From a bacterium (lineage in GTDB: Bacteria > Electryoneota > Electryoneia > Electryoneales > Electryoneaceae): DNA of 64,000 bases. Position numbers and translations under genes: made by a program. Within the stretch, counting starts at the first letter, position 1; the number at the start of each line of letters is the position of its first letter. Under the pieces are notes generated by a model. It saw nothing but the letters and a program-made list of their open reading frames with translations. It was not told the DNA's origin and searched no databases. This document shows, one piece after another, positions 21,789 to 51,453 of this stretch. The stretch spans positions 4,096,001 to 4,160,000 of the forward strand of contig OY769902.1 in the NCBI GenBank assembly GCA_963669175.1, given 5' to 3'.

Positions 21789-21820
21789 TCTTATCACCTT
21801 TGTAAAGTGAACTACGGTAC

Positions 21821-28952: not shown

Positions 28953-29119
28953 TTTTTCCTTCCTCCGTCTTTGTTGAATGAGTATCCTATGAAACTCTGA
29001 AGACCGGCTCGTGCAAAGGAACCGTGCCATGTTGTCTGTATGGGGATATCAATTGCCCTGAGCGCCCCACTTCGCTCAGAACGGTAAAATGCTTCCTGTT
29101 TTGTTAACAAAAGATTGAA

Positions 29120-34569: not shown

Positions 34570-34631
34570 CTCACAGACGAGAATTCCGTTACAGGATTGG
34601 GTTATTTAACCGAAAGGGAACTTCCCGCTCC

Positions 34632-35861
34632 ATGACTATCCAGGAAAACGCACGAATCGGGTTGCAGGCACTCATGGCACAGAAAGTCCGTAGCTTTCTG
34701 ACCATGCTGGGGATCATTTTCGGAGTTGCGGCTGTTGTTGCGATGACATCCATCGGCGCAGGAGCACGTCAGGAATTGCTCGACGCCATTAAAGTGATGG
34801 GTGTAAACAACTTCATTGTACGTACTTCAGACTTGGATGGAGATGAATTAAACACTGCCATCGAACGCAATCCCAAGAAAATGAGTTTCGCCGATGTTGA
34901 GGCGCTTCGCACGATTGTAACTGAAGCACAGTTCATTGTCCCTGTCAGGGTGTATGAGAGTAAAACTCAGTTGCCTGCAGTTCAATCAGTCAATCTCGTT
35001 GGCACAACTCCTGAATACCAGAACCTGCAAGCGCTTACGCTGGTTGCCGGCAGGTTCCTGAAAGAGTCCGACATGACCAGCCGAGCTCCAGTGATTATTA
35101 TTTCGGAGAAGATGAAACGTGAGCTCTTCCCCCTGTCATCGGGACTGGGCGAGCAAGTCAAACTGCTGGACCAATGGTATACCATTGTTGGTGTCGTCCG
35201 CCCTCCTGTCAGCGGGAAGAGTATTCCCGGCATGGACATGCGTGATCTTCACGATGATATATACACTCCTATAAAAACGATGCAGGCGCGTGTCGCAGTG
35301 TCTCCGGAATCATCCCCTATCAGCGAGATCGTTATCCAGGCGCCGGACGAGAACCAGGTACGCATCACCGCTGCTGTTGTTTCTAGAGTGATAAAGCGAC
35401 GTCACCGTGATGCGAACGATTTCGAAGTCATTGTGCCGGTGGAATTGCTGAAACAGAGCCAGAAGACACAACGCATTTTCAACATTGTGATGGGAGCAAT
35501 CGCGTCCATTTCTCTGCTGGTCGGCGGCATCGGGATCATGAATATCATGCTCTCCAGTGTTCTCGAACGCACCCGTGAGATCGGGGTACGACGCGCCGTT
35601 GGCGCCACCCGAACCAATGTTGTCACGCAATTCCTGATTGAAGCGGTCATGCTGAGTGTGCTGGGTGGTTTTATCGGCATTGTCATCGGGGCTTTGATGG
35701 CGTGGCTGATCACCCTGTTCGCAGGTTGGACAACAGTACTGGGCATAAAAGCGGTAATTCTGGCTTTTGGCGTTTCTGCGGGAGTTGGCATCCTGTTCGG
35801 CTGGTGGCCAGCGAAAAAAGCCGCTGAAATGGATGTCATCAATGCGCTGCGATATGAGTAG
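34632..35861 (+). CDS. ABC transporter permease, MacB family
   Basis: RSFLTMLGIIFGV; ISLLVGGIGIMNIML..V.ERTREIGVRRAVGA; terminal ALRYE. Confidence 0.95.
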   Translation: MTIQENARIGLQALMAQKVRSFLTMLGIIFGVAAVVAMTSIGAGARQELLDAIKVMGVNNFIVRTSDLDGDELNTAIERNPKKMSFADVEALRTIVTEAQFIVPVRVYESKTQLPAVQSVNLVGTTPEYQNLQALTLVAGRFLKESDMTSRAPVIIISEKMKRELFPLSSGLGEQVKLLDQWYTIVGVVRPPVSGKSIPGMDMRDLHDDIYTPIKTMQARVAVSPESSPISEIVIQAPDENQVRITAAVVSRVIKRRHRDANDFEVIVPVELLKQSQKTQRIFNIVMGAIASISLLVGGIGIMNIMLSSVLERTREIGVRRAVGATRTNVVTQFLIEAVMLSVLGGFIGIVIGALMAWLITLFAGWTTVLGIKAVILAFGVSAGVGILFGWWPAKKAAEMDVINALRYE

Positions 35862-35883
35862 TAACTTGAACACACGAGCTACC

Positions 35884-37419
35884 ATGTACAACTTTAAAAG
35901 ACATACAGCCGTATTTGTCCTGTTATTGCCGATACTGCTTGGTATGAGCAGCACGGGCATATCCCAGGGACAGGACACGCTGTTTATTGATCTGCGAATG
36001 GCGCTGGAACTTGCCTGGGAAGGCGCCCCGGATATGATATACAGTCAGCTCAACGACGAGTCTGCCCTGCTGAACATGAAGCTGGCCAAGGCCAATTATT
36101 ACTTCCCGCGGCTGGACATGAACCTTCAGACGCCTTCGCTGGAAGAAACCCAGACAGAAGCATCCGTCTATGATGCCACTGTGGGCGAGAATGTTTATAA
36201 ATGGTCCAGCACAAAATCACGCATGTGGTATGGTAACCTGGCGTTGTCACAACCTCTTCCGACTGGCGGTGACCTCAGCCTGGTGTCAACTTTTTATGAG
36301 AACTTCCGTAAAGACCAGTACGCAGATGATGAAACCCTTCGGAGCATGGCCTACAGGCTGGAGGTATCGCAGGATTTCCTGAACGGGAACCAGAGAAAAC
36401 GTGTCTACGACCGTGCCAAGCTCAGCTACGATCGAACCCGCTGGGGGTCCAGCCGTTCACGTCGCCAACTGGCCTACCAGATATTGCAGGCGTATTATTC
36501 TTTGCTGACCAGCCAGCGTTCACTCGAGATTTCCAGCGATGACCTGGAAGCCTCGAGTGAAATGGCGCAACTGGCAAGAAACAAGTATGAAGCCGGGCTG
36601 ATCCCTGAATCGGAAGCGCTGCAACTGGAAGTGGAAGTCCTTGAAAAAGAAGCCACTCTTGCTACAGAGGTCTCTACTCTGGCAACCAGCCTGGAAGCAT
36701 TCCGTATCACACTCGGGCTTGATCTGGACCGTCCTCTCAAGGTTATCGGCGCCCCCCAGTTCAATTCAATCTCAATTGACCTGGATAACTCTGTGGCGCT
36801 GGCGTTGGCAGAACGAGAGGATCTTCGTCAGCATGAGATCAATGTCGATCTGGCTGAATTTGATCTGAAAGACGCCAAACGTGACTATGGTCCCAGCGGC
36901 TCTATCAGCGCTTTTTACTACCTGGACAGACGTGAAGATCAGGAATGGAACGCCTTACTTAATACACCCCTGGGAGATTACCAGGTAAATCGAGGGGTTA
37001 CAGTAAGTTTTGCGGTTCCGATCTGGACTGCGGGCAGACGTAGCGCTGCCGTGCAAATGGCGAAAGTCGAATTGCGCCGAAGCCAGTTTGAAGAGGAAGA
37101 ATACAAACGCTCGATCATACTGGATGTCAGAAAATCCGTCCGTGAGATCGAAGAAGCCGAACGAAGGTATCAGACAAGCCTGCGCGCGCTGGAGCTGGCC
37201 GAGGTGTCCTATGGCCAGATGAAAGACCGGTTTGAGAACGGACAGGTGAGCGCCCGCGAATGGAGTGAATCCCAACTTGCCTTGAAACGTAGCAGAATCA
37301 ATGCTTTGAATGCTTTGATTGACCACTTGATGGCTGTTGCCGGGTTCCGTCTGGCGACCGGTCAGGATGTTGTTCCGTGGCAATCCGAAATGTCTGTTTC
37401 CCCACTTTCAGGGGATTGA
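35884..37419 (+). CDS. TolC family outer-membrane efflux protein
   Basis: Signal peptide; AYYSLL, KYEAGLI, VPIWTAG, RFENGQVS; third gene of the adaptor-permease operon. Confidence 0.88.
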   Translation: MYNFKRHTAVFVLLLPILLGMSSTGISQGQDTLFIDLRMALELAWEGAPDMIYSQLNDESALLNMKLAKANYYFPRLDMNLQTPSLEETQTEASVYDATVGENVYKWSSTKSRMWYGNLALSQPLPTGGDLSLVSTFYENFRKDQYADDETLRSMAYRLEVSQDFLNGNQRKRVYDRAKLSYDRTRWGSSRSRRQLAYQILQAYYSLLTSQRSLEISSDDLEASSEMAQLARNKYEAGLIPESEALQLEVEVLEKEATLATEVSTLATSLEAFRITLGLDLDRPLKVIGAPQFNSISIDLDNSVALALAEREDLRQHEINVDLAEFDLKDAKRDYGPSGSISAFYYLDRREDQEWNALLNTPLGDYQVNRGVTVSFAVPIWTAGRRSAAVQMAKVELRRSQFEEEEYKRSIILDVRKSVREIEEAERRYQTSLRALELAEVSYGQMKDRFENGQVSAREWSESQLALKRSRINALNALIDHLMAVAGFRLATGQDVVPWQSEMSVSPLSGD

Positions 37420-37540: not shown

Positions 37541-40500
37541 ATGTCGCAACGAAGTGCGTTAAAGAACGATTTAAGCAGGTATAAAAAGCTCGTAAAAAAA
37601 AATCCGCTGCTGTTTTCACGGGTTGCGGATATCGAGCTGAAGCTTGGACAGTACAAATCTGCTCGCAAACGCTTGGAAGATGGCCTGCGTTATCATCCCG
37701 ACCATTCGACGGGACGATTGCTGCTGGCCAAGGCGATGGAAAAAACCGGTTCACGTGAAGAGGCTATTGACGAACTGCGTACCCTGGTTAAACAGGAGCC
37801 AATGAATACCCGGGCAAGGCGTGAGTTTATCGCGGCCCTGACCGATTCCGGGCATACCGATGAATTACGACGCCAGATGTTCCAGCTTTACCAGATTGAT
37901 CCGGAAGACAAACAGAGTCGTAAAGGGCTTCGAACCCTGATCCTGGCAAAAGTCCGGGAAAAACACCCCAATATTCACGATTGGCCGGAAGAGTGGCTGC
38001 TTGCGGATTTTACCCGTGAAGGCGCGTTGGCCAAACGTGTAGCTCGTGACATGAACCTCGCAGAGGAACGCCCCTGCCCCCCGGACGATGTGGTTCCCGC
38101 GCTGGAAGACACCGATATCATCGATACCAAGGATGAATTGCGCAGACTGGGCGAACCGCTTGATCAACCATCTGTGGCAGCCCCGAAAAAACAACCTGAC
38201 ACTCCTGAAACTGCTGTTGAGGTCAGCCAGGAAGACCTCGATGAAACCATGCATGGCGAACTTAATACTCCAGAAGAATGGCAGCTCGATAAACAGGAAG
38301 CTACCGGTACGGTAACAACCGAACCGGTTGAAGAAATTGGTGACGAGGCGACGGAAGCAGATGAGGATGATTCCGCCCTTGCTGCATTGCAGGCGGATAT
38401 GGCGGCAATGCAGTTCGATCAGGAAAAACATGCTGCACCAACAGAAATGAAAGATGAAACACTAGTGGGAGATGAAGCTTCAACTGTTGCCACCTTTGAT
38501 GTGGAGCCGTTGCCGGATGACACCGAAGCGGAAGCGGGAATGATGGCTGAACCTGCGGATGAAACGGTTCTGGAAGCTGAAACAAGTGTTGATGAAGAAG
38601 TAACAACCATTGAAGAACCTGGCATTCCGACAGAAGAGGCTGACGACACATCGCTGGAAGATGAAGAAACGGATGAAACTGAAGACGAGGAACAAGAGGA
38701 AGAGGAAGAGGAAGAGGAAGAAGAGGAATATAACCCGGTCAAGGAAGCGCTAAGAGCTGCCGGACTTGAACCGAAAAATTATGTAGACGTTAAGAAGTTG
38801 CTTGCTTTGACTGAGCAGGAAGAACCGTCATTAATCCAGAAACCTTCCATAAAGAAGGCTGCCAAACGCCAGAAACCAGCCCCGACAGAAGAAAAACCGG
38901 TAGATGACGCTGAGGCCGCAACTGCCCCGGTTCAGTTGCCCGCAGATCAAGAGCAGAAATCGGCCGCAGAAGATAAAGCTGGCGATGAGTCAGGAAAAAC
39001 TGCACCGGCTGAAACGGATGCCGCAACGCAGCCGGAAGAACAGACACCTCAGGTAGAAATTGATGACCTGGACACCTCATTCTCGAAATCGGATATTGAC
39101 TCGATGTTTAAGGAAGCTGGCATTACAAGCAAAGAAGAACTTCAACAGATGCAAAAAGAAGAACACGAAGAATTGAAACAAGAGGATTCAAGCGAAACCA
39201 TCGAGCCGGGTGATATAGAAGAAGAGAAACCGGAAGAGCCTGCTCCTGCCGATGTCCCGGAAGCAACAGATACTGAATCCGCTGATTTCAACCAGGCGGA
39301 TCTGAATGCACTGTTTGATCAAAAACAGGATGATGAGGATAGCAGCTCCTTCAGCCAGGACGATATCAACGCGCTTCTGAAAGGTGGCGCATCGAAACCC
39401 GAACCCGCGCCCGAACCGGAAGAGGAACCCGCCCCATCCGCAGGCGGAGGATCGTTCAGCCAGGACGATATTGACGCACTCCTGAAAGGCGGCGCATCGA
39501 AACCCGAACCCGAGCCGGAACCTGAGCCCGAACCGGAAGAAGAACCTGAACCGTCAGCAGGTGGCGGCTCCTTCAGCCAGGATGATATCGACGCGCTTCT
39601 GAAAGGCGGCGCTTCCAAACCGGCCCCCGAACCCGAACCGGAAGAAGAACCTGAACCGTCAGCAGGTGGCGGCTCCTTCAGCCAGGACGATATTGACGCA
39701 CTCCTGAAAGGTGGCGCATCGAAACCCGCGCCCGAACCGGAAGAAGAACCAGAACCGTCAGCAGGTGGCGGCTCCTTCAGCCAGGATGATATCGACGCGC
39801 TTCTGAAAGGCGGCGCTTCCAAACCGGCCCCCGAACCCGAACCGGAAGAAGAACCAGAACCGTCAGCAGGTGGCGGCTCCTTCAGCCAGGATGATATCGA
39901 CGCGCTTCTGAAAGGCGGCGCATCGAAACCGGAACCCGAGCCAGAACCCGAGCCTGAACCGGAAGAGGAACCCGCCCCGTCAGCAGGTGGCGGTTCCTTC
40001 AGCCAGGACGATATCGACGCGCTTCTGAAAGGCGGCGCATCGAGACCGGAACCGGAGCCAGAACCTGAAGAGGAACCCGCCCCATCAACAGGTGGCGGTT
40101 CCTTCAGCCAGGATGATATTGATGCACTCCTGAAAGGTGGCGCATCGAAACCCGAACCCGAACCGGAAGAGGAACCCGCCCCATCCGCAGGCGGAGGATC
40201 GTTCAGCCAGGATGATATTGACGCACTCCTGAAAGGCGGCGCATCGAAACCGGAATCCGAGCCCGAACCGGAAGAGGAACCGGCCCCGTCAGGAGGTGGT
40301 GGTTCGTTCAGCCAGGATGATATTGACGCACTCCTGAAAGGTGGCGCATCGAAACCGGAACCCGAGCCCGAACCGGAAGAGGAACCGGCCCCATCCGCAG
40401 GCGGAGGATCGTTCAGCCAGGATGATATTGACGCACTCCTGAAAGGCGGCGCATCGAAGCCAGAGCCAGAAGAAAATGAAATGTCCCAAGCCGCTGCACG

Positions 40501-41593
40501 TACGCTTCAGGAATTGGACGCGAACGATGACTTTGATTTCGAAATCGGGTTCAGCCAGGATGACCTTGATGAATTGATTCAGGCCAAGAAAGAAATGGAT
40601 CGAAAGCCGGCAGCGCCTCCTTCACTTGGTCAGAAGGGGCCGCTAGGTCAGGATGACATCTCGGCCCTGTTTGCCAACCGAAGCCAGGTAAAAACTGAAG
40701 AGCCTCTGGCTGAACAGAAAGCAGAAAAACCTGTCGAAGATATCCCCGTTGAAGCAGTCGGTAACACAGGCAAGCCATTCAACCAGGACGATATTTCTGC
40801 ACTCTTCAGCCAGGTGAAGGAAAAAGGACAGGAAGCACACGAAGAGTTGGTGGAAGAATCGCTGGAAGACGAGCAACCGACTTCAGTTGCAGATATCATG
40901 AACGCCGCGCCGGATGAATCCCCAGTGGAAATGGCGGCCAGTGAGGCTGAAGCAATCGAAACTGAGACTGATAAAGTTGTACCAGTTGAAGAAGAAGAAG
41001 AAGTAGCAGCCGAAACGCCTGAAGCAGATGAAGCTCAGGAAATTGCAGCTTCGGAAGACATGCCTGTATCGCCATCAAAAACAACCCTGTTCAACCAGGA
41101 TGATATCAACTCCCTGCTTCGTGACATGGGCAGTATTCGTAGATCCGGTCCCAAACCGACTATTTCGCAAACCTTGTCCCAACCTCCCGCTGAACCGGAA
41201 ATACCGGAAGAAGCTGCGGAAGAAGTTGAATTGGCCGCAGAGCCGGTTATTGAGAAAGCTGCCGCCCAGAAAGATCCAGATGGCAGGTTTGACCTTGATC
41301 AATGGTTCCATTCCAAGCAGGATGATCAGGAAGCCGGCCCGACGCCCGAGAAGCCTTTGCCCAAACCGGCAAAGCCCCAGCCCCCTGTTGGGCAAGCGGG
41401 GACAAGCGCGCGCAAGGCCGTATTGCGTGGACCGGTCACAAAGACATTTGCGCGCCTGTTGTTGAAACAGGGCCACTCAGACCTTGCCTCTATCATTGCA
41501 CACCGGTTGTATTTGTTGAACCCGGAAGACCCGGAAGTGATTGATCTCCTGGCCGAGTCCATCTCCGGTATGGAAGAACCGGACGTCGAGTAG
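37541..41593 (+). CDS. TPR protein with long acidic disordered region carrying arrayed FliM-N-like peptides
   Basis: N-terminal TPRs; Glu/Pro-rich centre with 11 tandem FSQDDI(D/N)ALLKGG units; C-terminal TPR-like TKTFARLLLKQGH; GGAGG RBS; no signal peptide or TM helix. Confidence 0.85.
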   Translation: MSQRSALKNDLSRYKKLVKKNPLLFSRVADIELKLGQYKSARKRLEDGLRYHPDHSTGRLLLAKAMEKTGSREEAIDELRTLVKQEPMNTRARREFIAALTDSGHTDELRRQMFQLYQIDPEDKQSRKGLRTLILAKVREKHPNIHDWPEEWLLADFTREGALAKRVARDMNLAEERPCPPDDVVPALEDTDIIDTKDELRRLGEPLDQPSVAAPKKQPDTPETAVEVSQEDLDETMHGELNTPEEWQLDKQEATGTVTTEPVEEIGDEATEADEDDSALAALQADMAAMQFDQEKHAAPTEMKDETLVGDEASTVATFDVEPLPDDTEAEAGMMAEPADETVLEAETSVDEEVTTIEEPGIPTEEADDTSLEDEETDETEDEEQEEEEEEEEEEEYNPVKEALRAAGLEPKNYVDVKKLLALTEQEEPSLIQKPSIKKAAKRQKPAPTEEKPVDDAEAATAPVQLPADQEQKSAAEDKAGDESGKTAPAETDAATQPEEQTPQVEIDDLDTSFSKSDIDSMFKEAGITSKEELQQMQKEEHEELKQEDSSETIEPGDIEEEKPEEPAPADVPEATDTESADFNQADLNALFDQKQDDEDSSSFSQDDINALLKGGASKPEPAPEPEEEPAPSAGGGSFSQDDIDALLKGGASKPEPEPEPEPEPEEEPEPSAGGGSFSQDDIDALLKGGASKPAPEPEPEEEPEPSAGGGSFSQDDIDALLKGGASKPAPEPEEEPEPSAGGGSFSQDDIDALLKGGASKPAPEPEPEEEPEPSAGGGSFSQDDIDALLKGGASKPEPEPEPEPEPEEEPAPSAGGGSFSQDDIDALLKGGASRPEPEPEPEEEPAPSTGGGSFSQDDIDALLKGGASKPEPEPEEEPAPSAGGGSFSQDDIDALLKGGASKPESEPEPEEEPAPSGGGGSFSQDDIDALLKGGASKPEPEPEPEEEPAPSAGGGSFSQDDIDALLKGGASKPEPEENEMSQAAARTLQELDANDDFDFEIGFSQDDLDELIQAKKEMDRKPAAPPSLGQKGPLGQDDISALFANRSQVKTEEPLAEQKAEKPVEDIPVEAVGNTGKPFNQDDISALFSQVKEKGQEAHEELVEESLEDEQPTSVADIMNAAPDESPVEMAASEAEAIETETDKVVPVEEEEEVAAETPEADEAQEIAASEDMPVSPSKTTLFNQDDINSLLRDMGSIRRSGPKPTISQTLSQPPAEPEIPEEAAEEVELAAEPVIEKAAAQKDPDGRFDLDQWFHSKQDDQEAGPTPEKPLPKPAKPQPPVGQAGTSARKAVLRGPVTKTFARLLLKQGHSDLASIIAHRLYLLNPEDPEVIDLLAESISGMEEPDVE
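39347..40470 (+). repeat. Coding tandem repeat, 11 units of about 99-117 bp
   Basis: TTCAGCCAGGA(C/T)GATAT recurs 11 times; units differ by the number of PE dipeptides. Confidence 0.95.
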
Positions 41594-42218: not shown

Positions 42219-42284
42219 GAAATTCTGACAAACCTGGTTTTGGTCTCTCAGGTTGCCATGCCAGGTTATTTGGAGGGGAAACAG

Positions 42285-43871
42285 GTGCGGGGTTTACAAC
42301 GTCTTGCAATTATCCTGATGCTATGTGCTGTATTTGTTTCAGTGCAGGCTCAGACCGACGGTGATCCTCAGGATCAACGGGAAGATGCTACCGCCCCACC
42401 GCCGCAAATTGCCGGGGAGCTGGAGCTGGAGAAGGCCCTGTCGGAGCGGCTTGAAGAGATGCTTCAGCCACTGGTCGGACCAACGGTGGTCATGGTGGAC
42501 ATCACCCTCGGTGAGGTGCCCGTTGAATTGCAGGGGTACATTTACAGCCAGTCTCGCAGTCTGCCGGGATTACCGGTTTCAGTGAGTGAAGATGTTCGCA
42601 GAATGCAGGAATCCGGCTGGTATTTCAGTGAGATATCCAAAACCATTATTCATGTATTTGTTTCGGGATCCATGTCGGAACGTGAGATTGAACGTATACA
42701 CGAACTGATCCCGATCTGGATTTCTATCAATTCCAGTCGCGGTGACCAGATTATTATTGAACGATCACCATTCATCAATCCCCCGTTGACCCTTATTCAG
42801 TATCTATACTCGAAGCGAGGGTTGTGGACCGCAATCCTTATCCTTGCAGGCCTGATTGTGCTTGCCGGAGTTGTCTACTCCGCGATTTCCAGGTTTTCGC
42901 GCTACCGTATGGTGGAATCACCTGTCGGCCATGAGCAGGAAGGCGGCGGCGCTAGCATGTCCACCACAGACCTCGCCAAATTGTTGGGAATGGCAATGGG
43001 CGGTGGCAGCGGTGCTGGTGGTGTTGGCGGAACCGCGCCCGGCGGTGGCGTTGGCGGCGGGTCCGGCGGCGTTGGCGGCGGCGGTATTGGCGGCGGCGCT
43101 GGCGGTGCTGGTGGCGTTGGCGGAGGCGCTGGTAGCGATGCTGCGATATTGAGTCTGCCTGATGGTGAGATTCCCATCCGAATTGTGCGCGACAAGGAAT
43201 CAGAGGGGAAAAACCGTGGTGTTCTGGCAAAAGTAGCCAACATGAACGCACTTAGCCTCCTCAAATTGATCGAAGGAGAGAGCCCTGACTTTGCAGCGCT
43301 GGCGTTAACCTCGGCCAAGCCTGACATTGCCGGTAAAATTATTGGTGAACTACCGGAACAACAGAGAAAAGAGATCCTGGCTTATTGGGATATCCTGGAG
43401 AAAAACGATGCGGACAAGATCAACCAGATGGTTGAGCGTATCCGCAAGAAGCATACAACAGTCAGCTCTGTAGCCATTTCTCTTGGCGATGGGACCGCGA
43501 AGCTTTCGAACATCATCAACGCTCTGCCTGATCGTGAAGCGCAGGAACTTTACGCCAGCCTGACCAATGCTGATCCCGCCCTGGCAAAGCGTGTGCGCAA
43601 GAGTGTATTCTTCCTCAGCGACTTGATGAACCTGGAAGAGGCCACACTGAAACGTGTTGTTCTGCGTCTCCCGAACCCGACGCTCGCAGCTCTGATATCT
43701 ACTGCTTCAGATGATGTAAAGAATGTCGTATTCGCTTGTCTGTCACGACGGGCGATCAACATGGTGTCTGAGGAAATGGCCATGCGTCGTTCCAAGTCAC
43801 GTGACCGCATAGCCGAAGCAAAACGCACCTTCCTGGATACGTTGCAGCAGGTGCAGGAAACCAGTTTGTGA
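42285..43871 (+). CDS. FliF(RBM3)-like periplasmic domain, TM helix, Gly-rich linker and FliG middle/C-terminal domains in one fusion protein
   Basis: Signal peptide (VQA|Q). FliF-like LEEMLQPLVGP and INSSRGDQIIIERSPF. FliG-like ESPD, DPALAKRVRKSVFFLSDL and LSRRAINMVSEEM. GGAGG 8 nt before GTG 42285. Confidence 0.8.
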   Translation: MRGLQRLAIILMLCAVFVSVQAQTDGDPQDQREDATAPPPQIAGELELEKALSERLEEMLQPLVGPTVVMVDITLGEVPVELQGYIYSQSRSLPGLPVSVSEDVRRMQESGWYFSEISKTIIHVFVSGSMSEREIERIHELIPIWISINSSRGDQIIIERSPFINPPLTLIQYLYSKRGLWTAILILAGLIVLAGVVYSAISRFSRYRMVESPVGHEQEGGGASMSTTDLAKLLGMAMGGGSGAGGVGGTAPGGGVGGGSGGVGGGGIGGGAGGAGGVGGGAGSDAAILSLPDGEIPIRIVRDKESEGKNRGVLAKVANMNALSLLKLIEGESPDFAALALTSAKPDIAGKIIGELPEQQRKEILAYWDILEKNDADKINQMVERIRKKHTTVSSVAISLGDGTAKLSNIINALPDREAQELYASLTNADPALAKRVRKSVFFLSDLMNLEEATLKRVVLRLPNPTLAALISTASDDVKNVVFACLSRRAINMVSEEMAMRRSKSRDRIAEAKRTFLDTLQQVQETSL

Positions 43872-43881
43872 GGAAACGAGC

Positions 43882-44637
43882 ATGAAGCTTACATCTTTGT
43901 TTGGTCTGCTCATGGGCCTCGGACTGGTATTCGTTGCAATCATTTCCCGTGGCAGTCTGCTGCAGTTTATCAGTATTGAGTCCATCTTTATTGTGCTGGG
44001 TGGCACTGTCGGCGCCACTCTGCTGTCCTTCAACCGGGATCAGCTTGAAATTGCAATCCGCGCAATTCGTGTCGTCTTCTTCGATACCACTCCCCCACCG
44101 GATAACCTGATCCCGATTATGGTGGACCTGGTAAAACAGGCGCGTGTGAATGGTGTTGGTTCATTGGAAGTTCCTGAAGGCGAGGGCGAACGAAATGAGT
44201 TCCTCCACAAAGCAGTGGACATGCTGATTGACGGTATTGAACCGAGTGTCGCCGCTCAGATTTTGCAGGGCGAATCGGACGCTATCGCATCACGCTATCG
44301 TATGAGCGAGCGACTGTTCACAGTCATGGGCACATATACCCCTCTGTTCGGATTGTTGGGCACAGTCATCGGTCTGATCATCATGCTTTCCAGCGTAAAT
44401 GATCCCATGGCTATCCCGGGCGCGATGGCGGTTGCCATGTTGACCACATTTTACGGCGTTCTGTTCAGCGCCATGATTTTCCGTCCCATGGCGACCAAGA
44501 TTCGCGCATGGAACTATGATGAAATCCAACTGCGTGACCTGATTATCGAAACCATGATGCACATTTCTGAAGGTGTCAACTCGCAGATTTCGCAGGAACG
44601 TCTGCAATCGCAGTACCGTACCCGGAGGCGTGGCTAA
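43882..44637 (+). CDS. motA: Stator A subunit (MotA/PomA/MotP family)
   Basis: IVLGGTVGA; ARVNGVGSLE (conserved Arg/Glu); PLFGLLGTVIGLI; AMAVAMLTTFYG. Confidence 0.93.
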   Translation: MKLTSLFGLLMGLGLVFVAIISRGSLLQFISIESIFIVLGGTVGATLLSFNRDQLEIAIRAIRVVFFDTTPPPDNLIPIMVDLVKQARVNGVGSLEVPEGEGERNEFLHKAVDMLIDGIEPSVAAQILQGESDAIASRYRMSERLFTVMGTYTPLFGLLGTVIGLIIMLSSVNDPMAIPGAMAVAMLTTFYGVLFSAMIFRPMATKIRAWNYDEIQLRDLIIETMMHISEGVNSQISQERLQSQYRTRRRG

Positions 44638-45338
44638 TGGCAGGCCCTCGTCGCTGGAATCCCAAGAGAAGACGGGTCATCGAACCGGAACATGAAGGTG
44701 AACCCTGGCTGACCACGTATGGCGACCTGATGACGTTGCTGCTGGTGTTCTTTGTCCTGTTCTACATCTTTTCCGTAACGGGGCAAATGCCTTTCCTGAA
44801 AGAAGCGTTTGAACGCTTCCAGATGAAATCGGAAGCGCCCGCCGCACTTGACGCACAGGAATTTGAACAGATCGAGGAAGCCGGTGGTGAAATCGTCATT
44901 TCAATCCCTTCCAACGTCCTGTTTGACCTGGGACAAGCTGATATCAAACGGGAAGCGATGTATGTTTTGCAGGATGCGGTAAAACAGATCAAAGATCATT
45001 TGATAGATGCGCCACATGCGCAGATACGTGTGGAAGGCTACACCGACAACCTGCCGATCCATAATTACCAGTTCCGTTCCAATTGGGAACTCTCGGCTGC
45101 TCGTGCTATTGCTGTGGTTAAATACCTGATTGAAATTGAAGGATTTAAGCCCGAGCGTTTGCAGGCTATGGGGTATGGTGAGTACAACCCTGTCGTTCCG
45201 AATGATACCGCGGAAAACCGTCAGAAGAACCGTCGTGTTGAAATCAAGATTGTCAAATCTCCCGTTGACCAGAGCTTTGACGAGCTTTCCACGGGCGCAC
45301 CTTCTGGATTCCCATCGCAACAGGCGAGGAACGAATGA
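44637..45338 (+). CDS. motB: Stator B subunit (MotB/PomB/MotS family) with OmpA-like peptidoglycan-binding domain
   Basis: WLTTYGDLMTLLLVFF; VEGYTDN.PI; SNWELSAARA; NRRVEI; TAATG overlap with motA. Confidence 0.95.
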   Translation: MAGPRRWNPKRRRVIEPEHEGEPWLTTYGDLMTLLLVFFVLFYIFSVTGQMPFLKEAFERFQMKSEAPAALDAQEFEQIEEAGGEIVISIPSNVLFDLGQADIKREAMYVLQDAVKQIKDHLIDAPHAQIRVEGYTDNLPIHNYQFRSNWELSAARAIAVVKYLIEIEGFKPERLQAMGYGEYNPVVPNDTAENRQKNRRVEIKIVKSPVDQSFDELSTGAPSGFPSQQARNE

Positions 45339-48300
45339 AGCGGGTACGCTGGCATCTTTTCCTGTTGCTTTTTCTTCCGCTCTGCACGTTTGCTCAGAGC
45401 CGGATTGATCTCTCCCCCTGGCCGGGAAACATGGCCTGGTTTGGTGAAGGCACCCAGCGTGTCGGTGTCGCCATCGCCTCCGGTGATATGAATGGCGACG
45501 GTCTCTGGGATGTGGCCATTTCAGCGCCGGGCACAAGAAACAACTCCGGTGATGTATATGTATTCCTGGGCGATGGAGTCACGTTCGATTCAGTTCGTTT
45601 TGATAATCCCGCTGCAGAAGCCAACCTTGTCATAGAGGGTACTGCCGGGTTACAGATCGGTGTCAAGCTGGTGATGGGTGATCTGAACGGTGACGGACGT
45701 GACGATCTGGTCATCGGCGCGCCCCATGCCGACGACAGTCGCGGACGAGTCTGGGTTATCTTCGGCAGCGCATCTCCTTCCGGGACGGTTACTGAACCGG
45801 ATGTTGAAATCTTCGGCAGTGCGGACGGCGATCACTGTGGACGCGCCATTGGTATTACCAACATCGGTGACGATGCCTACAACGACATTGTCATCGGCTC
45901 CCCCAATGCAGACCCTCGCCAGCGAGACAGCGCGGGACGTGTTGATGTTATCGCCGGACGGGCTTCCTGGCCGGAAAACATATCCCTTTCTACACAGGCA
46001 TCGACTGTAACCGTATTTGGCGGCCAGACCGGTGAACAACTGGGTGAAGCCATCAGCGTCTGCCCCATTTTCCAGGGGACATTACTGGGCAACAACCTTA
46101 ACGGCGACGGGTATGGCGACCTGATTATCGGCGCTCCGGGACGAACCTACGCAGGGCGTACTGGCGCTGGCGCTGTCCATATTTTCGTCACCCCGGAAAG
46201 CCTGGCAGATACGGTAGACCTTACCACTGACAACGTCCCACTTCTGCAAGACTACCGTCAGCTCGGCGGCGCACAGACCCTGGATCTGACCGGCCGCGCT
46301 ATCGCTTCGTTTAACACAACGGGAATTCGTGGTGTCCTGATCGGCGCTCCGGCAGCGTTGCAGGACGGAGTGCGTGGCGGCGCTTTTTATTATATCACCT
46401 GGGATGAGATCAACACGGCCGCTCCTTGGGCAGATCTTCGGCAGGCAACCTACTTCCGGGTGAAATTTACCGGCGCGGCGGAGGATGATTCACTCGGCGC
46501 AGCGGTTGCAGGTATTGATGAGCTGATGATGGCGGCAGCGCCCGGGGCGAATTACCGGGCACGGGAAGAAGCCGGGCAGGTGGTTGCGATAACCGACAAC
46601 CCGATTCTGACAGGCATAATCCGTGTCGATACCCTTGACGCCAATGTCCGTCACTTTTTCGGTGCCGGTGCGGGCCATGACCTCGGTCGCTCACTGACCA
46701 TTGCTGATCTCGATGACGATGGCATCTTTGATCCCATCATGGGATCACACTCCCATACAGACTATGCCGGGGCTGTTCACGCCGTACGTGGCGGGCTGCC
46801 CTATTTCTTCAACATTTACCCGGCGCCGGGACAGGGAAATATTCCCAGCGAAGATACCCTGTCTTTCCGCATCAGTGATGATGAAACAGGAATTGCGACA
46901 GCCAGTTTTATCATGATCCTGGATGGCATCACGTACAACATTAACCATCCTGGTGTCAGCTACGAGATGAACGACGGGATCTATTCCTTTGAGCTGGTCC
47001 CGGAAGAACCCTTTGATATCAATGTTCCGATCAACGTGATCACCCATATCACAGACACACAGGGTAACCGTTCACCGCTCTGGTATTACCAGTTCATCAC
47101 CGGTCAGGATGTCACTGCGCCGTATCCCACTCAATTCTCCCCCGCACCGGGCGAAGTAAATGTCGCGACCACACGTGACATCGCCTTCAGTCTGCGTGAT
47201 GCCGGAGATGGTGTTGACAGCACGACAATCATGGTCGTGATTGATACGGATACGGTCCGCCAGGGCGATCCAGAGATGAGAATCAGCGGTTCCATTTCCA
47301 ATTACCGTGTCGTGATCAATCCCGAGTCTTCCTTGCCGCCAGACGCACAGATTGACGTACGAATTGAAGCGGCTGACCTTACGGAGCCATCCCCCAATTG
47401 GATGACACCGTACGATTATTTCTTCTTTACCTCACTAGATACAATTCCGCCGGAACTGGTTTTCATTTACCCGGAACCGGGCGTAACGATTGATGTCGGA
47501 ACCAAAATCAATTTCAGAATCATTGATACCGGATCAGGGGTAAATGCAGATTCTACCAAAATCCTTCGCACTCAGCAAAGTGGTGAAGAATACGGCGATC
47601 TGTTATTCGAAGCCATCTCACAGGGATACGCGTTCGTTCATAATCCTGAGAATAATCCCTATGATTCCGGGCTGTTGCAACTGACGGCACAATCACGTGA
47701 CCTGGCTGATGATCCCAATATCATGGAGGATTCAACCTGGTCCTATAATGTCATTGTGGATAACCGTGCGCCTGAACTGACTGAAGCGATACCGCACCCG
47801 GATAGTGTGGGATCAGCACGAAACACGCCGATTACCCTGACCATCATGGATAACGCGGCGGGGATCGACTCCACCACCTTGCAACTCGAAATTGATAATG
47901 TCTTTATCGCCCATCGCAATATCATCTGGGAACGCATCGAGCATCTTGGTTACCGGATTACCTACCAGCGTTCAGAAGGCATATACGGCGACAGTGTGAT
48001 CGTCCACCTGAACGTGTTTGACAAAACAATCCCGGACGGTATCGAACTGGATACCACATATATTTTCTATCCCGAGAACGATGATGAGCCGCCTTATTTC
48101 CTACTGGTTGATCCGCCGCAGGGATCGGAAGGTGTATCTGTGGAAGATTCCCTGATATGGGAAGCCGCGGACGACATGACCGGAATCGACCCATCCAGCG
48201 CCTACATCTCGATCAACAATGCGGACCATTCCGTACTGTTGCGATACAATACCCACCCTGTCACCCAGGGCGCACAATACAGGTTCGTCTATACTCCGCC

Positions 48301-50005
48301 GTTATCGCTGCCTTATGAGGATACGGTCAGTGTCCGCTTCGGCATCAGTGATAACGAGGAACCGTCCAATGACGCGATCCTCGTGTATGAGCTGTTTACC
48401 GAGCCGGATGAATACCCGCCCTACCTGACCAATTTGAGCCCGTATCCGGGACAGATCGGCGTATCTCGTGGCGCGGATATCGTGTTCCATGTTCTGGACG
48501 CCGGGGTTGGTGTGGCGCGTGATTCGCTGCATCTCGCCATTGATGGAATCGCCGTAGCCAATGAGAACATCTACTGGGAAGAGGTTGAACAGGGATATGC
48601 TTTCCGTTACAATCCGCCTGGTCTGTTCGGTCATACGGATACAGTGCATGTATCCGTGACCTGCTATGACCTGGCAACCTCACACAACCGTATGGATGAA
48701 TCTTACTGGTTTGTCACGCTCCGAGATGACCGTGAACCTCCCTACATGGAAGAGGAACAACCGGCTGATTCTTCCGGAGGTGTATCACCAGATATTATCC
48801 TCAGTTTCGACCTGAAGGATGACGGCGAAGGTGTCGATACCAGCTATACTACAATCCAGAACATGGACGATCCCCTCTGGATAGCGACACGTGAAGTAAC
48901 ACCTATCATCAACGGTTTCCACTATGTGCTGGCCCCGGCAACCGATTTCCTGTACAGCGATACGGTGACGATCGGCGTGAACGCTCGTGATCTTGCAGAA
49001 CCGGCGAATGTGACACCGAATCCGTTGACATTCTCTTTCTACACCCAGTTGGATGACGCTTCCCCCTTCTTTACCGAGCTGCAACCTGCGCCGGACTCTA
49101 GTATTACCTATAACCGTCCAGTCAGCTTTGAAGTTATCGATATGCTCGCCGGGGTTGACACATCCGATGTCCACATCTTCATTGATTCGGAAGAAATCAC
49201 GAATAACAGTGACGATTACGAAATCCTTATCGAGGAAACAGCCGACGGCTGGCGGTATACCTATACGCCGTACGATGGTTGGAATGTGAGCACAACCTAT
49301 TCTGTGACGCTTTCCGCTGCCGACTATTCCAATATTCGCAACGAGATCGATTCAACCTACCAGTTTGAGGTCATTCCTGACCTGGTCGCGCCGTATGTAA
49401 ATAGTTTTGCGATTGTCCGACTGGTTAACGATACTCTTGCTGTGGTTGACAGCACCAGCATCACCCTTGACGATTACCTCTATTTCGAAGTGCTGGATGA
49501 CGGCATCGGGGTAGATGCGAATTCGATCCGTCTCGAACTGGGCGGACGTAACGCCCCGGAACCAGTTCTTACCCAGGAGCTGGAAACCGGTTACTATCGT
49601 GTGTACCGATTGAGCGACTGGAATTCTGTCGGTCCACAGTACCTATTCCCCGGCCAGCAGGTGCAGGCATATATCAGCGCTCGCGACCTGTCGGTTCCGG
49701 AAAACACGCTGACTCGTGACAAGCATACGTTCTATATTCCACCTCCCGATGTGGAGCTGCTGGTCATTCCAACGACCATTACTCCGAACGGTGACGGTGT
49801 CTGGGATGAAGCGCTGATCTATCATAAGGGATCTTCATCGGCTTCCGTGGATTTCTTCGACATGCGCGGGCGTAAAGTTGCTACAGTCCAGGGCAACCCG
49901 GCAAGCTGGAACGGCAACGATGACAGCGGCGAACCCGTACCGGGTGGATTATACATCTTCCAGGTCAGCGGCGGTGGCCAGGGCACAATTGCGGTGGCAC
50001 GATGA
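45335..50005 (+). CDS. Giant secreted FG-GAP (integrin-alpha-like propeller) and Ig-repeat protein with type-B-like T9SS CTD
   Basis: Signal peptide; GD.NGDG..D..IGAP repeats; nine D..PP...P.PG...D.G.GVD Ig-like modules; CTD IPTTITPNGDGVWD...FDMRGRKV...WNG...GLYIFQV; ATGA overlap with motB. Confidence 0.85.
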   Translation: MKRVRWHLFLLLFLPLCTFAQSRIDLSPWPGNMAWFGEGTQRVGVAIASGDMNGDGLWDVAISAPGTRNNSGDVYVFLGDGVTFDSVRFDNPAAEANLVIEGTAGLQIGVKLVMGDLNGDGRDDLVIGAPHADDSRGRVWVIFGSASPSGTVTEPDVEIFGSADGDHCGRAIGITNIGDDAYNDIVIGSPNADPRQRDSAGRVDVIAGRASWPENISLSTQASTVTVFGGQTGEQLGEAISVCPIFQGTLLGNNLNGDGYGDLIIGAPGRTYAGRTGAGAVHIFVTPESLADTVDLTTDNVPLLQDYRQLGGAQTLDLTGRAIASFNTTGIRGVLIGAPAALQDGVRGGAFYYITWDEINTAAPWADLRQATYFRVKFTGAAEDDSLGAAVAGIDELMMAAAPGANYRAREEAGQVVAITDNPILTGIIRVDTLDANVRHFFGAGAGHDLGRSLTIADLDDDGIFDPIMGSHSHTDYAGAVHAVRGGLPYFFNIYPAPGQGNIPSEDTLSFRISDDETGIATASFIMILDGITYNINHPGVSYEMNDGIYSFELVPEEPFDINVPINVITHITDTQGNRSPLWYYQFITGQDVTAPYPTQFSPAPGEVNVATTRDIAFSLRDAGDGVDSTTIMVVIDTDTVRQGDPEMRISGSISNYRVVINPESSLPPDAQIDVRIEAADLTEPSPNWMTPYDYFFFTSLDTIPPELVFIYPEPGVTIDVGTKINFRIIDTGSGVNADSTKILRTQQSGEEYGDLLFEAISQGYAFVHNPENNPYDSGLLQLTAQSRDLADDPNIMEDSTWSYNVIVDNRAPELTEAIPHPDSVGSARNTPITLTIMDNAAGIDSTTLQLEIDNVFIAHRNIIWERIEHLGYRITYQRSEGIYGDSVIVHLNVFDKTIPDGIELDTTYIFYPENDDEPPYFLLVDPPQGSEGVSVEDSLIWEAADDMTGIDPSSAYISINNADHSVLLRYNTHPVTQGAQYRFVYTPPLSLPYEDTVSVRFGISDNEEPSNDAILVYELFTEPDEYPPYLTNLSPYPGQIGVSRGADIVFHVLDAGVGVARDSLHLAIDGIAVANENIYWEEVEQGYAFRYNPPGLFGHTDTVHVSVTCYDLATSHNRMDESYWFVTLRDDREPPYMEEEQPADSSGGVSPDIILSFDLKDDGEGVDTSYTTIQNMDDPLWIATREVTPIINGFHYVLAPATDFLYSDTVTIGVNARDLAEPANVTPNPLTFSFYTQLDDASPFFTELQPAPDSSITYNRPVSFEVIDMLAGVDTSDVHIFIDSEEITNNSDDYEILIEETADGWRYTYTPYDGWNVSTTYSVTLSAADYSNIRNEIDSTYQFEVIPDLVAPYVNSFAIVRLVNDTLAVVDSTSITLDDYLYFEVLDDGIGVDANSIRLELGGRNAPEPVLTQELETGYYRVYRLSDWNSVGPQYLFPGQQVQAYISARDLSVPENTLTRDKHTFYIPPPDVELLVIPTTITPNGDGVWDEALIYHKGSSSASVDFFDMRGRKVATVQGNPASWNGNDDSGEPVPGGLYIFQVSGGGQGTIAVAR

Positions 50006-51453
50006 GAAGGCGTGGATTATCAAGAGGCCTGCAAGTCCTGATCAGCGTTTCACTGCTGGTTCTGCTGTTCTCCGCCCTGCCGACTCATGCGGCGTTTGAA
50101 GTGCTTCCGGGTAAACGTGCAACCGCGCTAGGCGGCGCTGTAGTGGCATCCGGCGGCGATCCGATGGGCTTCTACATCAATCCAGCCTCGATTGCCTGGG
50201 GCACAGTCACCTCGGTTGAAACCTTCTACATGAAGCCATTCTGGGGACTCGACGGCGATGCGCTGTCACGTTCGGCGATAAGCGGTTACGGCAGCCTCGG
50301 CGACTGGGGCGCTATCGCGCTTGGTTATGACCAGTTCGGCAGCGATCTATATAGTGAAAACCGTACGCTGTTGAGCTATGCCCGTAAACTCACGATGTAC
50401 GAACGCATGTTCACCGTGGGCGTTTCGCTTGAATTCCTGGGCCGCAAATATGCCGAGACAGAATATACCGCCATCGACCCGCTGTTCATTGAATATGGCT
50501 ATTCCAAGCGTTCTGTAGGTATCGACATCGGCATGCAGATGCGCCTGACCTCACGTATGACTGCGGGGCTGGCAATCCGTCGTATCAACAAACCGAACCA
50601 GGCGCTGGAAGACGGTGTGGATGATCCGCTGCCCCGTGAAATCCAGGCGGGTGTATCCATGCGCTTCACCCGTTTCATGCTGTATACGGATATTGAGTAC
50701 CGCGACCGTTCGCTCAACGGTGCAGACGTTTCGCCTCGACTGGGCGTAGAATTTCCGCTGTTCAACAATGCGCTGCACTTGCGTGGCGGCGGCAACCGAG
50801 ACGAAGTTGCGCTTGGCTTCGGGCTGAATATCTGGAAACACGACAGCGAAAAGAGCTACATGAGCAGTGCGGATGAGTCCGGCGCTCGTGAACGCAGGCG
50901 CGATATCAAAAACGCCACTTTGCGTGTCGGGTATACGTTCCGCTTCCCTATCGGAGGTGTGAGCGGCACTATCGGCCACCATATGCTGGGTATCGATTTT
51001 TACTTCGAACGGAAGCGTACGGTAATGGAACGGGTGCGTCAACCGCGTCCGGTCCAGGTGCCCCAGATTATCGTGGAAACGGATACGGTGCTGGTCGAGA
51101 AACCGGTGCTGGTGCATGAATTCGTTGAAGACACCAGCAAGGTGGAACTGCTCGAGGCCCGGATCACCGACCTTGAATCACAGCTTTCCCAACTGGTAAA
51201 CATGAACACGGCCATCCGTGAAGTGGAAATCGCTCAACGCCTGTTCTTGCAGAAAAACTACCAGGAAGCCCTGAATGCCTGCGACCGTGCCACCCGCCTC
51301 GTCCCCACACTGGCCCTCGCCTGGGTACAGAAAGGCTCGATCTACTACGCTATGGGACGCTACGGCGATGCCCGGACCGCGTGGAACCGAAGCCTGCGCC
51401 TCGATCCGAAACGGGATGATGTGAGGCAGTATTTGAAGCAGTTGCCGGAGTAA
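50002..51453 (+). CDS. PorP/SprF- or PorV-like outer-membrane barrel with C-terminal coiled coil and TPRs
   Basis: RATALGGAVVA...YINPA; GLAIRRINKPN; amphipathic strands; C-terminal TPRs (AWVQKGSIYYAMG); ATGA overlap with the upstream gene. Confidence 0.75.
   Translation: MRRRGLSRGLQVLISVSLLVLLFSALPTHAAFEVLPGKRATALGGAVVASGGDPMGFYINPASIAWGTVTSVETFYMKPFWGLDGDALSRSAISGYGSLGDWGAIALGYDQFGSDLYSENRTLLSYARKLTMYERMFTVGVSLEFLGRKYAETEYTAIDPLFIEYGYSKRSVGIDIGMQMRLTSRMTAGLAIRRINKPNQALEDGVDDPLPREIQAGVSMRFTRFMLYTDIEYRDRSLNGADVSPRLGVEFPLFNNALHLRGGGNRDEVALGFGLNIWKHDSEKSYMSSADESGARERRRDIKNATLRVGYTFRFPIGGVSGTIGHHMLGIDFYFERKRTVMERVRQPRPVQVPQIIVETDTVLVEKPVLVHEFVEDTSKVELLEARITDLESQLSQLVNMNTAIREVEIAQRLFLQKNYQEALNACDRATRLVPTLALAWVQKGSIYYAMGRYGDARTAWNRSLRLDPKRDDVRQYLKQLPE

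Follow-up and report, generated by a model that had tools for sequence, protein, structure and literature searches.

A natural minimal FliF-FliG fusion with its own MotAB stator, encoded beside outer-membrane adhesin genes in an Electryoneota genome

The window analyzed here, a 64,000-nucleotide (nt) stretch of an Electryoneaceae genome (phylum Electryoneota; assembly GCA_963669175.1, contig OY769902.1, positions 4,096,001 to 4,160,000 of the forward strand), contained a gene at 42285-43871 (+) in which a domain resembling the third ring-building motif (RBM3) of the flagellar protein FliF is joined, in one polypeptide, to the middle and C-terminal domains of FliG (FliG-MC). The gene was followed by its own MotA and MotB stator genes, a gene for a giant secreted protein, and a gene for an outer-membrane (OM) barrel. 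A FliF/FliG fusion with its own MotAB and OM parts beside a full flagellum looks like an undescribed rotary machine of the envelope. With confidence slightly above even, the gene is considered to encode the rotor of a stand-alone, flagellum-independent motor that is driven by MotAB and acts on the barrel-adhesin pair. What is established for this reading comprises the identities of the domains, the conservation of the contact residues, the coupling of the genes in one operon, their synteny, and their co-occurrence. No description of a natural minimal FliF-FliG fusion with its own stator was found in the literature searched; the main text of a paper on MotAB evolution contained neither FliF nor the word "fusion" and named FliG once, in the introduction. 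The available part of a paper on the phylum Electryoneota mentioned flagella and no fused rotor gene (PMC9324843). The rotor gene, its parts, and its downstream partners were located as follows.

42285-43871 (+), fused rotor gene: open reading frame, Shine-Dalgarno-like GGAGGGG, Pfam FliG_C and FliG_M, structure model
42285-42350 (+), Sec-type signal peptide (cleavage predicted behind VQA) or, if left uncleaved, a first membrane helix: hydrophobic segment 9-34, A31/Q32
42387-42785 (+), periplasmic domain of the ring-building type, similar to FliF RBM3, with a short hairpin insert at the position of the FliF β-collar: VIA-align, Foldseek, 64% identity
42558-42578 (+), SLPGLPV loop within the insert, the family signature: S101, L102, P103, L105, P106, and V107 invariant in 11 of 11 homologues
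42813-42905 (+), single transmembrane helix: Kyte-Doolittle peak 185-214, modeled helix 186-216
42906-43193 (+), cytoplasmic glycine-rich, mostly disordered linker: low model confidence, length and composition differing among orthologues
43194-43487 (+), FliG middle domain with ESPD instead of EHPQ: Pfam FliG_M, alignments, VIA-align Z 9.7 to an H. pylori FliG-M entry
43488-43868 (+), FliG C-terminal domain: Pfam FliG_C, VIA-align to 1qc7 and 8ucs_H
43737-43781 (+), torque helix LSRRAINMVSEEM with R498, E505, and E506: all three invariant across the 11 homologues, alignment with the corresponding helix of the canonical FliG of the genome
43882-44637 (+), dedicated MotA/PomA-type stator A subunit, 251 aa: full-length match to PomA/MotA structures (4e-38), R88/E96
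44637-45338 (+), dedicated MotB with plug, transmembrane Asp, and OmpA-type peptidoglycan-binding domain: MotB_plug 9.1e-14, OmpA 3.8e-21, start overlapping the motA stop
45335-50005 (+), 1556-aa secreted FG-GAP/Ig-like protein with a C-terminal domain (CTD) like the type-B domains of type IX secretion systems (T9SS): Pfam FG-GAP, Big_5, and CHU_C, 4-nt overlap with motB
50002-51453 (+), FadL/PorV/PorP-family OM barrel with a C-terminal tetratricopeptide repeat (TPR) domain, 483 aa: Pfam PorP_SprF and TPR, model, Foldseek, 4-nt overlap with the adhesin gene

The cytoplasmic half of the chain belonged to FliG. Pfam FliG_C matched at 1.9e-20 (73.6 bits, cut-off 23.3) and FliG_M at 1.5e-6 (28.8 bits, cut-off 25), and a profile of 11 homologues matched T. 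maritima FliG-MC (1lkv) at 1.3e-36, spanning both domains. In structural comparisons with VIA-align, rotor residues 313-537 were superposed on Salmonella FliG 97-320 with Z 16.1, and the FliG-C part was superposed on 1qc7 (Z 12.7) and on the MotAB-bound FliG-C of 8ucs_H (Z 12.3) with root-mean-square deviations (rmsd) of 1.4 and 1.5 Å, respectively. The N-terminal domain of FliG (FliG_N), through which FliG binds the C-tail of FliF, was not recovered: TIGR00207 aligned over model positions 112-323 of 338 only (80 bits, cut-off 226.7), the structural match began at Salmonella FliG 97, and rotor residues 217-312 were mostly disordered. The N-terminal domain of MgtE, a non-motor relative of FliG that shares the helical repeat, was rejected as an identity for this region, as its weak match (2.8e-5, 25.0 bits) fell below the Pfam cut-off of 25.9 and far below the FliG_C score, and the torque helix was present and conserved.

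The rotor was 24% identical to the canonical FliG of the same genome, and their alignment placed rotor SRRAINMVSEEM against SSRAAEMIEEEL, the torque helix of the genome's own FliG, with ESPD at the position of EHPQ and VFFL at that of MFVF. Motifs were compared more widely between 68 fused proteins and 61 canonical-length FliGs drawn from the best database matches; among the 152 entries analyzed, proteins with the N-domain (own hidden Markov model, E < 1e-3) and FliG-MC were counted as fused. The charges of the torque helix were retained to a similar degree in the fused and canonical-length proteins, at 74 versus 95% (R), 81 versus 77% (E), and 91 versus 97% (E/D), respectively. EHPQ is the FliM-binding motif of FliG. 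Its H and Q were unconserved in the 68 fused relatives, whereas they were found in 67 and 92% of the canonical-length FliGs; the ESPD site was variable among orthologues, and the genome's canonical FliG kept EHPQ. These patterns suggest that the FliM interface of the rotor has probably been lost.

The motA gene began after a gap of 10 nt downstream of the rotor gene. Its product matched NCBIfam PomA at 1.1e-53, under the equivalog cut-off; because the equivalog cut-offs were missed, the stator is a divergent member of MotAB/PomAB. It was 35% identical to the flagellar MotA of the genome. Its R88 and E96 were invariant across 8 paralogues and were also kept by the flagellar MotA of the genome. 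They have the eight-residue spacing of R90 and E98 of E. coli, the residues that pair with FliG R281 and D288-289 (PMC12505986). The transmembrane segment of MotB contained YGDLMTLL with its Asp. The initial annotation had read this part of the gene as FliG-M with ESPD and FliG-C with VFFL, with the Arg and acidic pair of the torque helix and the stator contacts kept and the canonical FliM interface probably lost; the Pfam, profile, and structural results bear out the domains, the invariant torque-helix residues facing an adjacent MotA with invariant R88 and E96 agree with retained contacts, and the MgtE-N alternative, which it had named as a possible refutation, is rejected. A Zorya-like defense system was also considered and rejected, since PADLOC matched ZorB models with MotB only, through generic MotB homology, and gave no ZorA or other Zor match for the rotor, MotA, the adhesin, the barrel, or the TPR protein; NCBIfam ZorA2 reached E 0.034.

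The periplasmic half was assigned to FliF mainly by its fold. In the AlphaFold2 model of the rotor (48-sequence alignment; mean predicted local distance difference test score, pLDDT, 75), residues 50-169 formed an α-β-β-α-β arrangement plus an inserted hairpin, with a core pLDDT of 80-96. Foldseek ranked FliG first for the whole model (2e-9), followed by about 17 FliF RBM3/collar entries (9e-6 to 1e-4, probability 1.00), with PrgK (4e-3) and SpoIIIAG (1e-2) below them. Rotor residues 44-175 were superposed by VIA-align on Salmonella FliF 228-438 with Z 12.0-12.6 and rmsd 1.8-3.1 Å, covering about 96-105 of 130 residues at 21-22% identity; the Z values of other ring-building motifs were 9.4 (SpoIIIAG), 8.7 (PrgK domain 2), 8.5 (EscJ), 8.1 (SpoIIIAH), and 7.8 (FliF RBM2). 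In sequence comparisons, Pfam YscJ_FliF_C was faint in the rotor (E 0.091, residues 131-178), an hhalign comparison between the family and the FliF of the genome yielded a weak match (33 columns, E 0.028) in which the rotor motif RGDQ..E..PF aligned with FliF 378-410, and a PDB-sequence search with the profile of 11 homologues returned no FliF. YscJ_FliF_C exceeded the Pfam cut-off in the distant fused relatives P0046 (39.6 bits), P0136 (31.9), P0044 (26.8), and P0047 (24.8). The RBM3 assignment is therefore based on the fold comparison and on relatives that pass Pfam. The nearest ESM Atlas clusters of the periplasmic part were FliF C-terminal-domain families (0.86-0.88), a lead that agrees with the fold result.

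RBM1 and RBM2 surround the flagellar export gate, and neither was found in the rotor. Pfam YscJ_FliF (PF01514, RBM1/RBM2) had no match in it, the sole match in the genome being the canonical FliF; no part of the rotor matched Salmonella FliF upstream of residue 228 in VIA-align, and only about 15 residues separated the signal peptide from the RBM3-like domain. The insert at the collar position comprised about 25-45 residues, with strands at 108-115 and loops, and its SLPGLPV motif was the consensus also in the 48-sequence alignment and in a distant alignment of 15 sequences. The periplasmic domain had no cysteine, which excludes a disulfide link to it.

The open frame containing the rotor gene (42240-43871, +) offered three candidate starts (TTG 42240, ATG 42258, and GTG 42285). 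GTG 42285 was the best-placed, with GGAGGGG 7-13 nt upstream, and gives a product of 528 aa; residue numbers are counted from ATG 42258 (537 aa), the version used for searches. The GTG-start protein opens with MRGLQRLAIILMLCAVFVSVQA, followed by QT, and the tripartite layout of a Sec signal peptide (n-, h-, and c-regions) was discernible. The "AQ" that closes the hydrophobic stretch (A31, Q32) was nearly invariant (at least 90%) in the 11 aligned homologues. Cleavage of this peptide is predicted to be probable, and an uncleaved peptide would mimic the first transmembrane helix of FliF. The two hydrophobic segments of the rotor (residues 9-34 and 185-214, Kyte-Doolittle) corresponded to modeled helices at 8-30 and 186-216, and the FliG part was all-helical from 314 to 536. 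Between them, the linker (217-315) had a pLDDT below 50 at 217-235 and 248-315, with a short helix at 236-247, and it takes the place of the joint between the FliF C-tail and FliG_N. In the close family, mean pairwise identity was 64% for the periplasmic domain, 29% for FliG_M, 37% for FliG_C, and 23% for the transmembrane helix; the periplasmic domain was thus the best-conserved part of the rotor, which fits many protein contacts. The predictions that had been made for this half, namely a cleavable-looking signal peptide, a periplasmic RBM3 with a short insert, the loss of the gate-housing part, and one transmembrane helix with a glycine-rich linker, stood up wherever these analyses could check them, including the proposed comparison with FliF, SpoIIIAG, and FliG structures.

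Within the otherwise variable linker (217-312), two short conserved patches were noticed, GPIS..SLAQ in the modeled helix 236-247 and TL.LP.G.L.VR.VR right before FliG_M. These patches might be docking sites for a cytoplasmic partner.

The two genes downstream of motB encode components for the cell surface. The C-terminal domain of the giant protein matched Pfam CHU_C (32.3 bits, cut-off 27) and stayed below the cut-off of NCBIfam TIGR04131 (22.7 bits, cut-off 35). The barrel matched Pfam PorP_SprF (30.6 bits, cut-off 22.3) and fell short of NCBIfam PorV_fam (42.3 bits) and PorP_fam (40.5 bits; cut-offs about 90). Foldseek matched it to FadL (1e-7) and to the PorV chains of two translocon entries of the T9SS, 8gl6_F and 6h3i_F. 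Its model showed a signal peptide, about 14 strands, and then a flexible linker, a 39-residue helix, and a confidently modeled TPR domain, the last three amounting to about 135 residues. The type-B CTD proteins of Bacteroidota are retained by a cognate and adjacent barrel of PorP-like type (PMC9143113), and the SprF barrel is dragged by a motor-driven periplasmic track (PMC12635249), according to the parts of these sources that were available. The OM half of the operon looks like the Bacteroidota type-B CTD/PorP pair, and its inner-membrane half is flagellar. Terminator-like sites were no commoner than in shuffled sequences, and the two best promoter-like sites, which are suggestive only, lay upstream of a 1350-aa gene described below. 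A cysteine of the barrel's TPR tail, C427, was kept by all nine aligned homologues, one of them a Cloacimonetes protein of 25% identity; it recalls the functional cysteines of the SprF tail, and the periplasmic domain of the rotor offers it no counterpart.

The five genes were conserved as a unit. In tblastn searches, all seven related loci whose flanks were long enough (L014-L020) had the rotor, MotA, MotB, the giant protein, and the barrel in unchanged order; L008, a 3-kb contig with the rotor only, lies outside this count. Across the syntenic loci, rotor identity fell to as low as 35%, and the identity of the giant protein, measured over about 1550 aa, was 71% for L020 and 42-49% for the other six loci. 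The rotor was present in 9 of 41 genomes of the phylum, including the source genome, all of them in one family, and one match was named Candidatus Electryonea clarkiae. Barrel orthologues occurred in exactly the same nine genomes, and the other 32 yielded one weak partial match only. As these relatives are not independent, the co-occurrence of rotor and barrel shows gain or loss as a unit and is not a statistic.

The genome (5.45 Mb, one contig) also harbored what looks like a complete flagellar cluster, located at 2.784-2.824 Mb and separated from the window by 1.3 Mb, with FliF (535 aa), FliG (348 aa, EHPQ), MotA, MotB, FliM, and many more genes. As a full flagellum exists alongside the module, the latter is no remnant in decay. 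A further 26 of the searched relatives had a FliG-type match and no rotor fusion.

Fused rotors are widespread in metagenomes, and the gene is thus one member of a family that is both large and old. A search of 1.84 billion representatives gave 2293 matches at E ≤ 1e-3, 232 at E ≤ 1e-10, and 9 at E ≤ 1e-30, and the named fused members came from KSB1 and Cloacimonadota and were labeled hypothetical. In a FastTree phylogeny of FliG-MC, 58 of the 61 canonical-length FliGs formed one clade (support 98), and 67 of the 68 fused forms fell outside it in several deep clades, with the query rotor in a clade of 11 (support 100). Three canonical-length entries sat inside fused clades and may be fragments. 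A distant metagenome contig (L033) also contained a rotor (23% identity) adjacent to MotA and MotB; this triad was preceded by LytR_cpsA_psr/SLBB and Wza-like polysaccharide-export genes (L033:480-2249) and followed on the opposite strand by a 1064-aa protein with no Pfam match (L033:5638-8835).

Several other arrangements of FliG domains were seen among the database proteins. P0029, P0046, P0047, P0058, P0130, and P0136 (625-746 aa) carried a C-terminal cytoplasmic TPR extension after FliG-C; of these six, P0046, P0047, and P0136 passed the N-domain test, and P0046 and P0136 had the strongest Pfam scores for the FliF C-terminal domain. P0080 (996 aa), in which a FliM domain, six DUF4116 repeats, FliG_M, and two FliG_C occur in one chain, is a different natural fusion of switch-complex parts.

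From these components we infer a ring, its rotation, its contact with the TPR domain, and its output as follows. Once exported, and probably freed of their signal peptides, the RBM3-like domains would pack laterally to form a ring in the periplasm, in the manner of FliF RBM3, and one transmembrane helix and a flexible linker would tie each subunit to one FliG-MC unit. A FliG ring of matching stoichiometry could then form under the membrane without FliG_N, FliM, or FliN; since each subunit carries its own FliG-MC, no FliG_N-FliF joint is needed. A MotA5B2-type stator, anchored to peptidoglycan by the OmpA domain of MotB and driven by ions, would push on the Arg/Glu-Glu torque helix and turn the ring. 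No export gate, rod, or hook is part of this scheme. The output would be the periplasmic face of the ring with its SLPGLPV loops, which may engage the periplasmic TPR tail of the PorP/PorV-like barrel, the proposed surface anchor of the giant type-B-CTD protein. Turning of the ring would then move the adhesin complex in a gliding-like drive or power the deployment of the adhesin. TPR domains commonly bind extended peptides, so that the proline-rich SLPGLPV loop is a plausible ligand for the TPR domain of the barrel.

Several points weigh against a stand-alone motor acting on the barrel and adhesin. All nine rotor-positive genomes also held a canonical FliG, which leaves room for a functional tie to the flagellum or to chemotaxis. 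No barrel or adhesin lay beside the rotor-MotAB triad of L033, and the output may thus differ by lineage or involve no adhesin at all. A low ring in the inner membrane would have to reach an OM protein across the peptidoglycan, toward which the barrel contributes the roughly 135 residues of its linker, helix, and TPR. The insert bearing the proposed contact loop was modeled at middling confidence (pLDDT 55-65), and the adhesin CTD and the barrel passed Pfam cut-offs and fell under the stricter NCBIfam ones. The FliG-MC tree was midpoint-rooted, with an arbitrary root, was made with FastTree, and included only the best matches to the query, so that its sampling is biased.

A rather unlikely alternative is that the rotary motor only energizes the secretion, insertion, or maturation of the giant protein, as a stand-in for GldLM/PorLM and without surface movement. 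The translational coupling of the giant-protein and PorP/PorV-like barrel genes to motB agrees with such a role, as does the T9SS inventory: SprA was present in the genome (C1:465303-466517, 2272-aa frame); models for GldL, GldM (PF12081, TIGR03517), and GldN found no match in the genome, though these searches had no positive control and carry little weight; GldK gave only sub-cut-off sulfatase-domain matches; and GldL was found in 0 of 41 relatives, with no control genome matched. A genome-wide PorP_SprF search missed even the window's own barrel, which further limits the weight of the T9SS negatives. SprA occurred in 40 of 41 relatives, in contrast with 9 of 41 for the rotor, so general T9SS export in the phylum does not need the rotor, and the giant protein is unusually conserved for mere cargo. 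The T9SS motor of the phylum is either too divergent for the Gld models or different. The window itself encodes a PorV-family barrel (20697-21866, -) and a 944-aa protein that ends in a type-A sorting domain of the T9SS (Por_Secre_tail and FlgD_ig; 26193-29027, -), which, judging by their domains, show a working T9SS cargo system. Together with SprA, these proteins also speak for the main reading, a motor that acts on the barrel-adhesin pair.

The motor that is proposed to act on the barrel-adhesin pair may have an accessory, encoded two genes upstream of the rotor.

37541-41593 (+), possible accessory, a 1350-aa acidic cytoplasmic protein with TPR ends: 17 FliM-N-like (F/L)SQDDIDALL motifs by motif count

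This protein contains 16% E and 9% D. The FliM of the genome begins with MNRILSQDEIDALL, and a six-frame genome scan with a stricter EIDALL-type motif identified two open frames only, FliM (1 copy) and the 1350-aa protein (11 copies). EIDALL is the binding site for phosphorylated CheY (CheY-P) on FliM and FliY, as stated in the accessible part of that source (PMC9126983). The gene was present upstream in 5 of 7 related loci, and with a looser pattern the orthologues there showed 7, 2, 1 (gene incomplete), or 0 copies. As the rotor has no FliM site, the 1350-aa protein may either deliver CheY-P to the motor or serve as a sink for it; it hints at CheY control of the rotor and is treated as a lead only. 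A Rosetta-stone argument was also rejected, as the C-terminal TPR on rotor P0130 had no BLASTP similarity to the 1350-aa TPR protein.

The 17 copies of this CheY-P-binding motif, together with a canonical FliG in every rotor-positive genome and a rotor operon made of true FliF, FliG, and MotAB homologues, are what can be said for the view that the module serves the ordinary flagellum or chemotaxis, either as an alternative or auxiliary rotor ring or as a competitor for stators or CheY-P that tunes swimming. That view is clearly improbable. The operon has its own stator, whose MotA is only 35% identical to the flagellar one, and lies 1.3 Mb from the flagellar cluster; the rotor lacks RBM1/2, FliG_N, and EHPQ and thus offers no apparent means of attachment to the export gate, FliF, or FliM; and it co-occurs exactly with the barrel and adhesin genes, not with flagella, as the 26 FliG-positive relatives without it illustrate. 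A static ring, serving as an envelope scaffold or mechanosensor with the MotAB-like units as ion-gated anchors or signal transducers like their ExbBD/TolQR relatives, is very unlikely: RBM domains do build static rings as well (SpoIIIAG and PrgK) and rotation is inferred here, but the torque-transmitting residues were conserved on both MotA and FliG partners, the stator matched flagellar PomA/MotA structures over its full length, and FliG-C superposed closely on the stator-bound form.

Compared with the flagellar rotor-stator core, the fused rotor and its stator share the RBM3 fold, the M and C domains of FliG, the torque-helix charges, the R/E partners of MotA, the MotB plug, and peptidoglycan anchoring by an OmpA domain. 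In contrast, the rotor is one polypeptide, not two; RBM1/RBM2, FliG_N, and EHPQ are missing, a short insert stands where FliF has its long β-collar, a cleavable-looking signal peptide replaces the first transmembrane helix of FliF, and the operon lacks genes for FliM/FliN, the export gate, rod, hook, and filament, its neighbors being OM adhesin parts. To our knowledge, the MotAB-FliG torque interface is known only from flagella.

FliF-FliG fusions made in the laboratory in Salmonella and Vibrio alginolyticus have a covalent 1:1 link and still form rings, as described in the portions of the sources at hand (PMC11481574; 10.1101/2023.02.06.527414; PMC6079021). The family profile matched the 945-residue Vibrio FliF-FliG fusion chain (PDB 8z4d/8z4g) at 1.7e-23, and its S-ring compared with the rotor model at Z 11.3-11.7. 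Those fusions join full-length FliF to full-length FliG and were engineered within the flagellar system, whereas the present rotor is natural and roughly half as large; it contains neither the gate-housing domains nor FliG_N, and a stator of its own accompanies it.

The gliding/T9SS apparatus of Bacteroidota (GldLM, GldKN, SprF, and SprB) also combines an ion-driven inner-membrane motor with a FadL/PorP barrel bearing a giant type-B-CTD protein (PMC9143113; PMC12635249, both in part), and a periplasmic C-terminal extension is common to its barrel and that of the window (PMC9143113). However, the motor here would consist of a FliG ring and MotAB, not GldLM, and the barrel tail is a TPR domain, not the twin-cysteine tail of SprF. 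SpoIIIAG, SctJ (PrgK/EscJ), and SpoIIIAH share the RBM fold, and SpoIIIAG also has a β insert within it, but they scored below FliF RBM3 and none is fused to FliG or paired with MotAB.

If the rotor of a MotAB-driven motor acting on the barrel and adhesin has been correctly identified, a natural rotor of half the usual size would show that the rotor-stator core is a portable module, one rotor gene and two stator genes would offer a minimal system for structural and single-molecule studies of torque, and the origin of the flagellar motor would become testable against a living relative. That the module occurs exactly where a PorP/PorV-like barrel and a giant CTD protein do would be a first link between flagellar-type motors and T9SS-type surface machinery, and the EIDALL array would provide a testable route for chemotaxis signals to a non-flagellar motor. 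A more ambitious version is a third machine built on the flagellar torque generator, next to the flagellum and distinct from GldLM-driven gliding, in which a minimal ring turned by MotAB drags a PorP-like barrel and its adhesin along the surface and is steered by chemotaxis through a scaffold with up to 17 EIDALL motifs that replaces FliM. Since fused rotors occupy several deep branches outside the canonical FliG clade, the minimal ring could, in this version, also resemble a pre-flagellar rotor that gave rise to the MS-ring/C-ring pair; in this complete form the proposal is tentative and, on present evidence, unlikely.

Farther upstream, before the 1350-aa gene, the window contained genes for a MacA-like adaptor, a MacB-like permease, and a TolC-like OM protein (33259-37419, +). 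Open reading frames of matching size, compared by size alone, were found upstream in L014, L015, and L018 and not in L016, and these genes are probably a mere neighboring export system.

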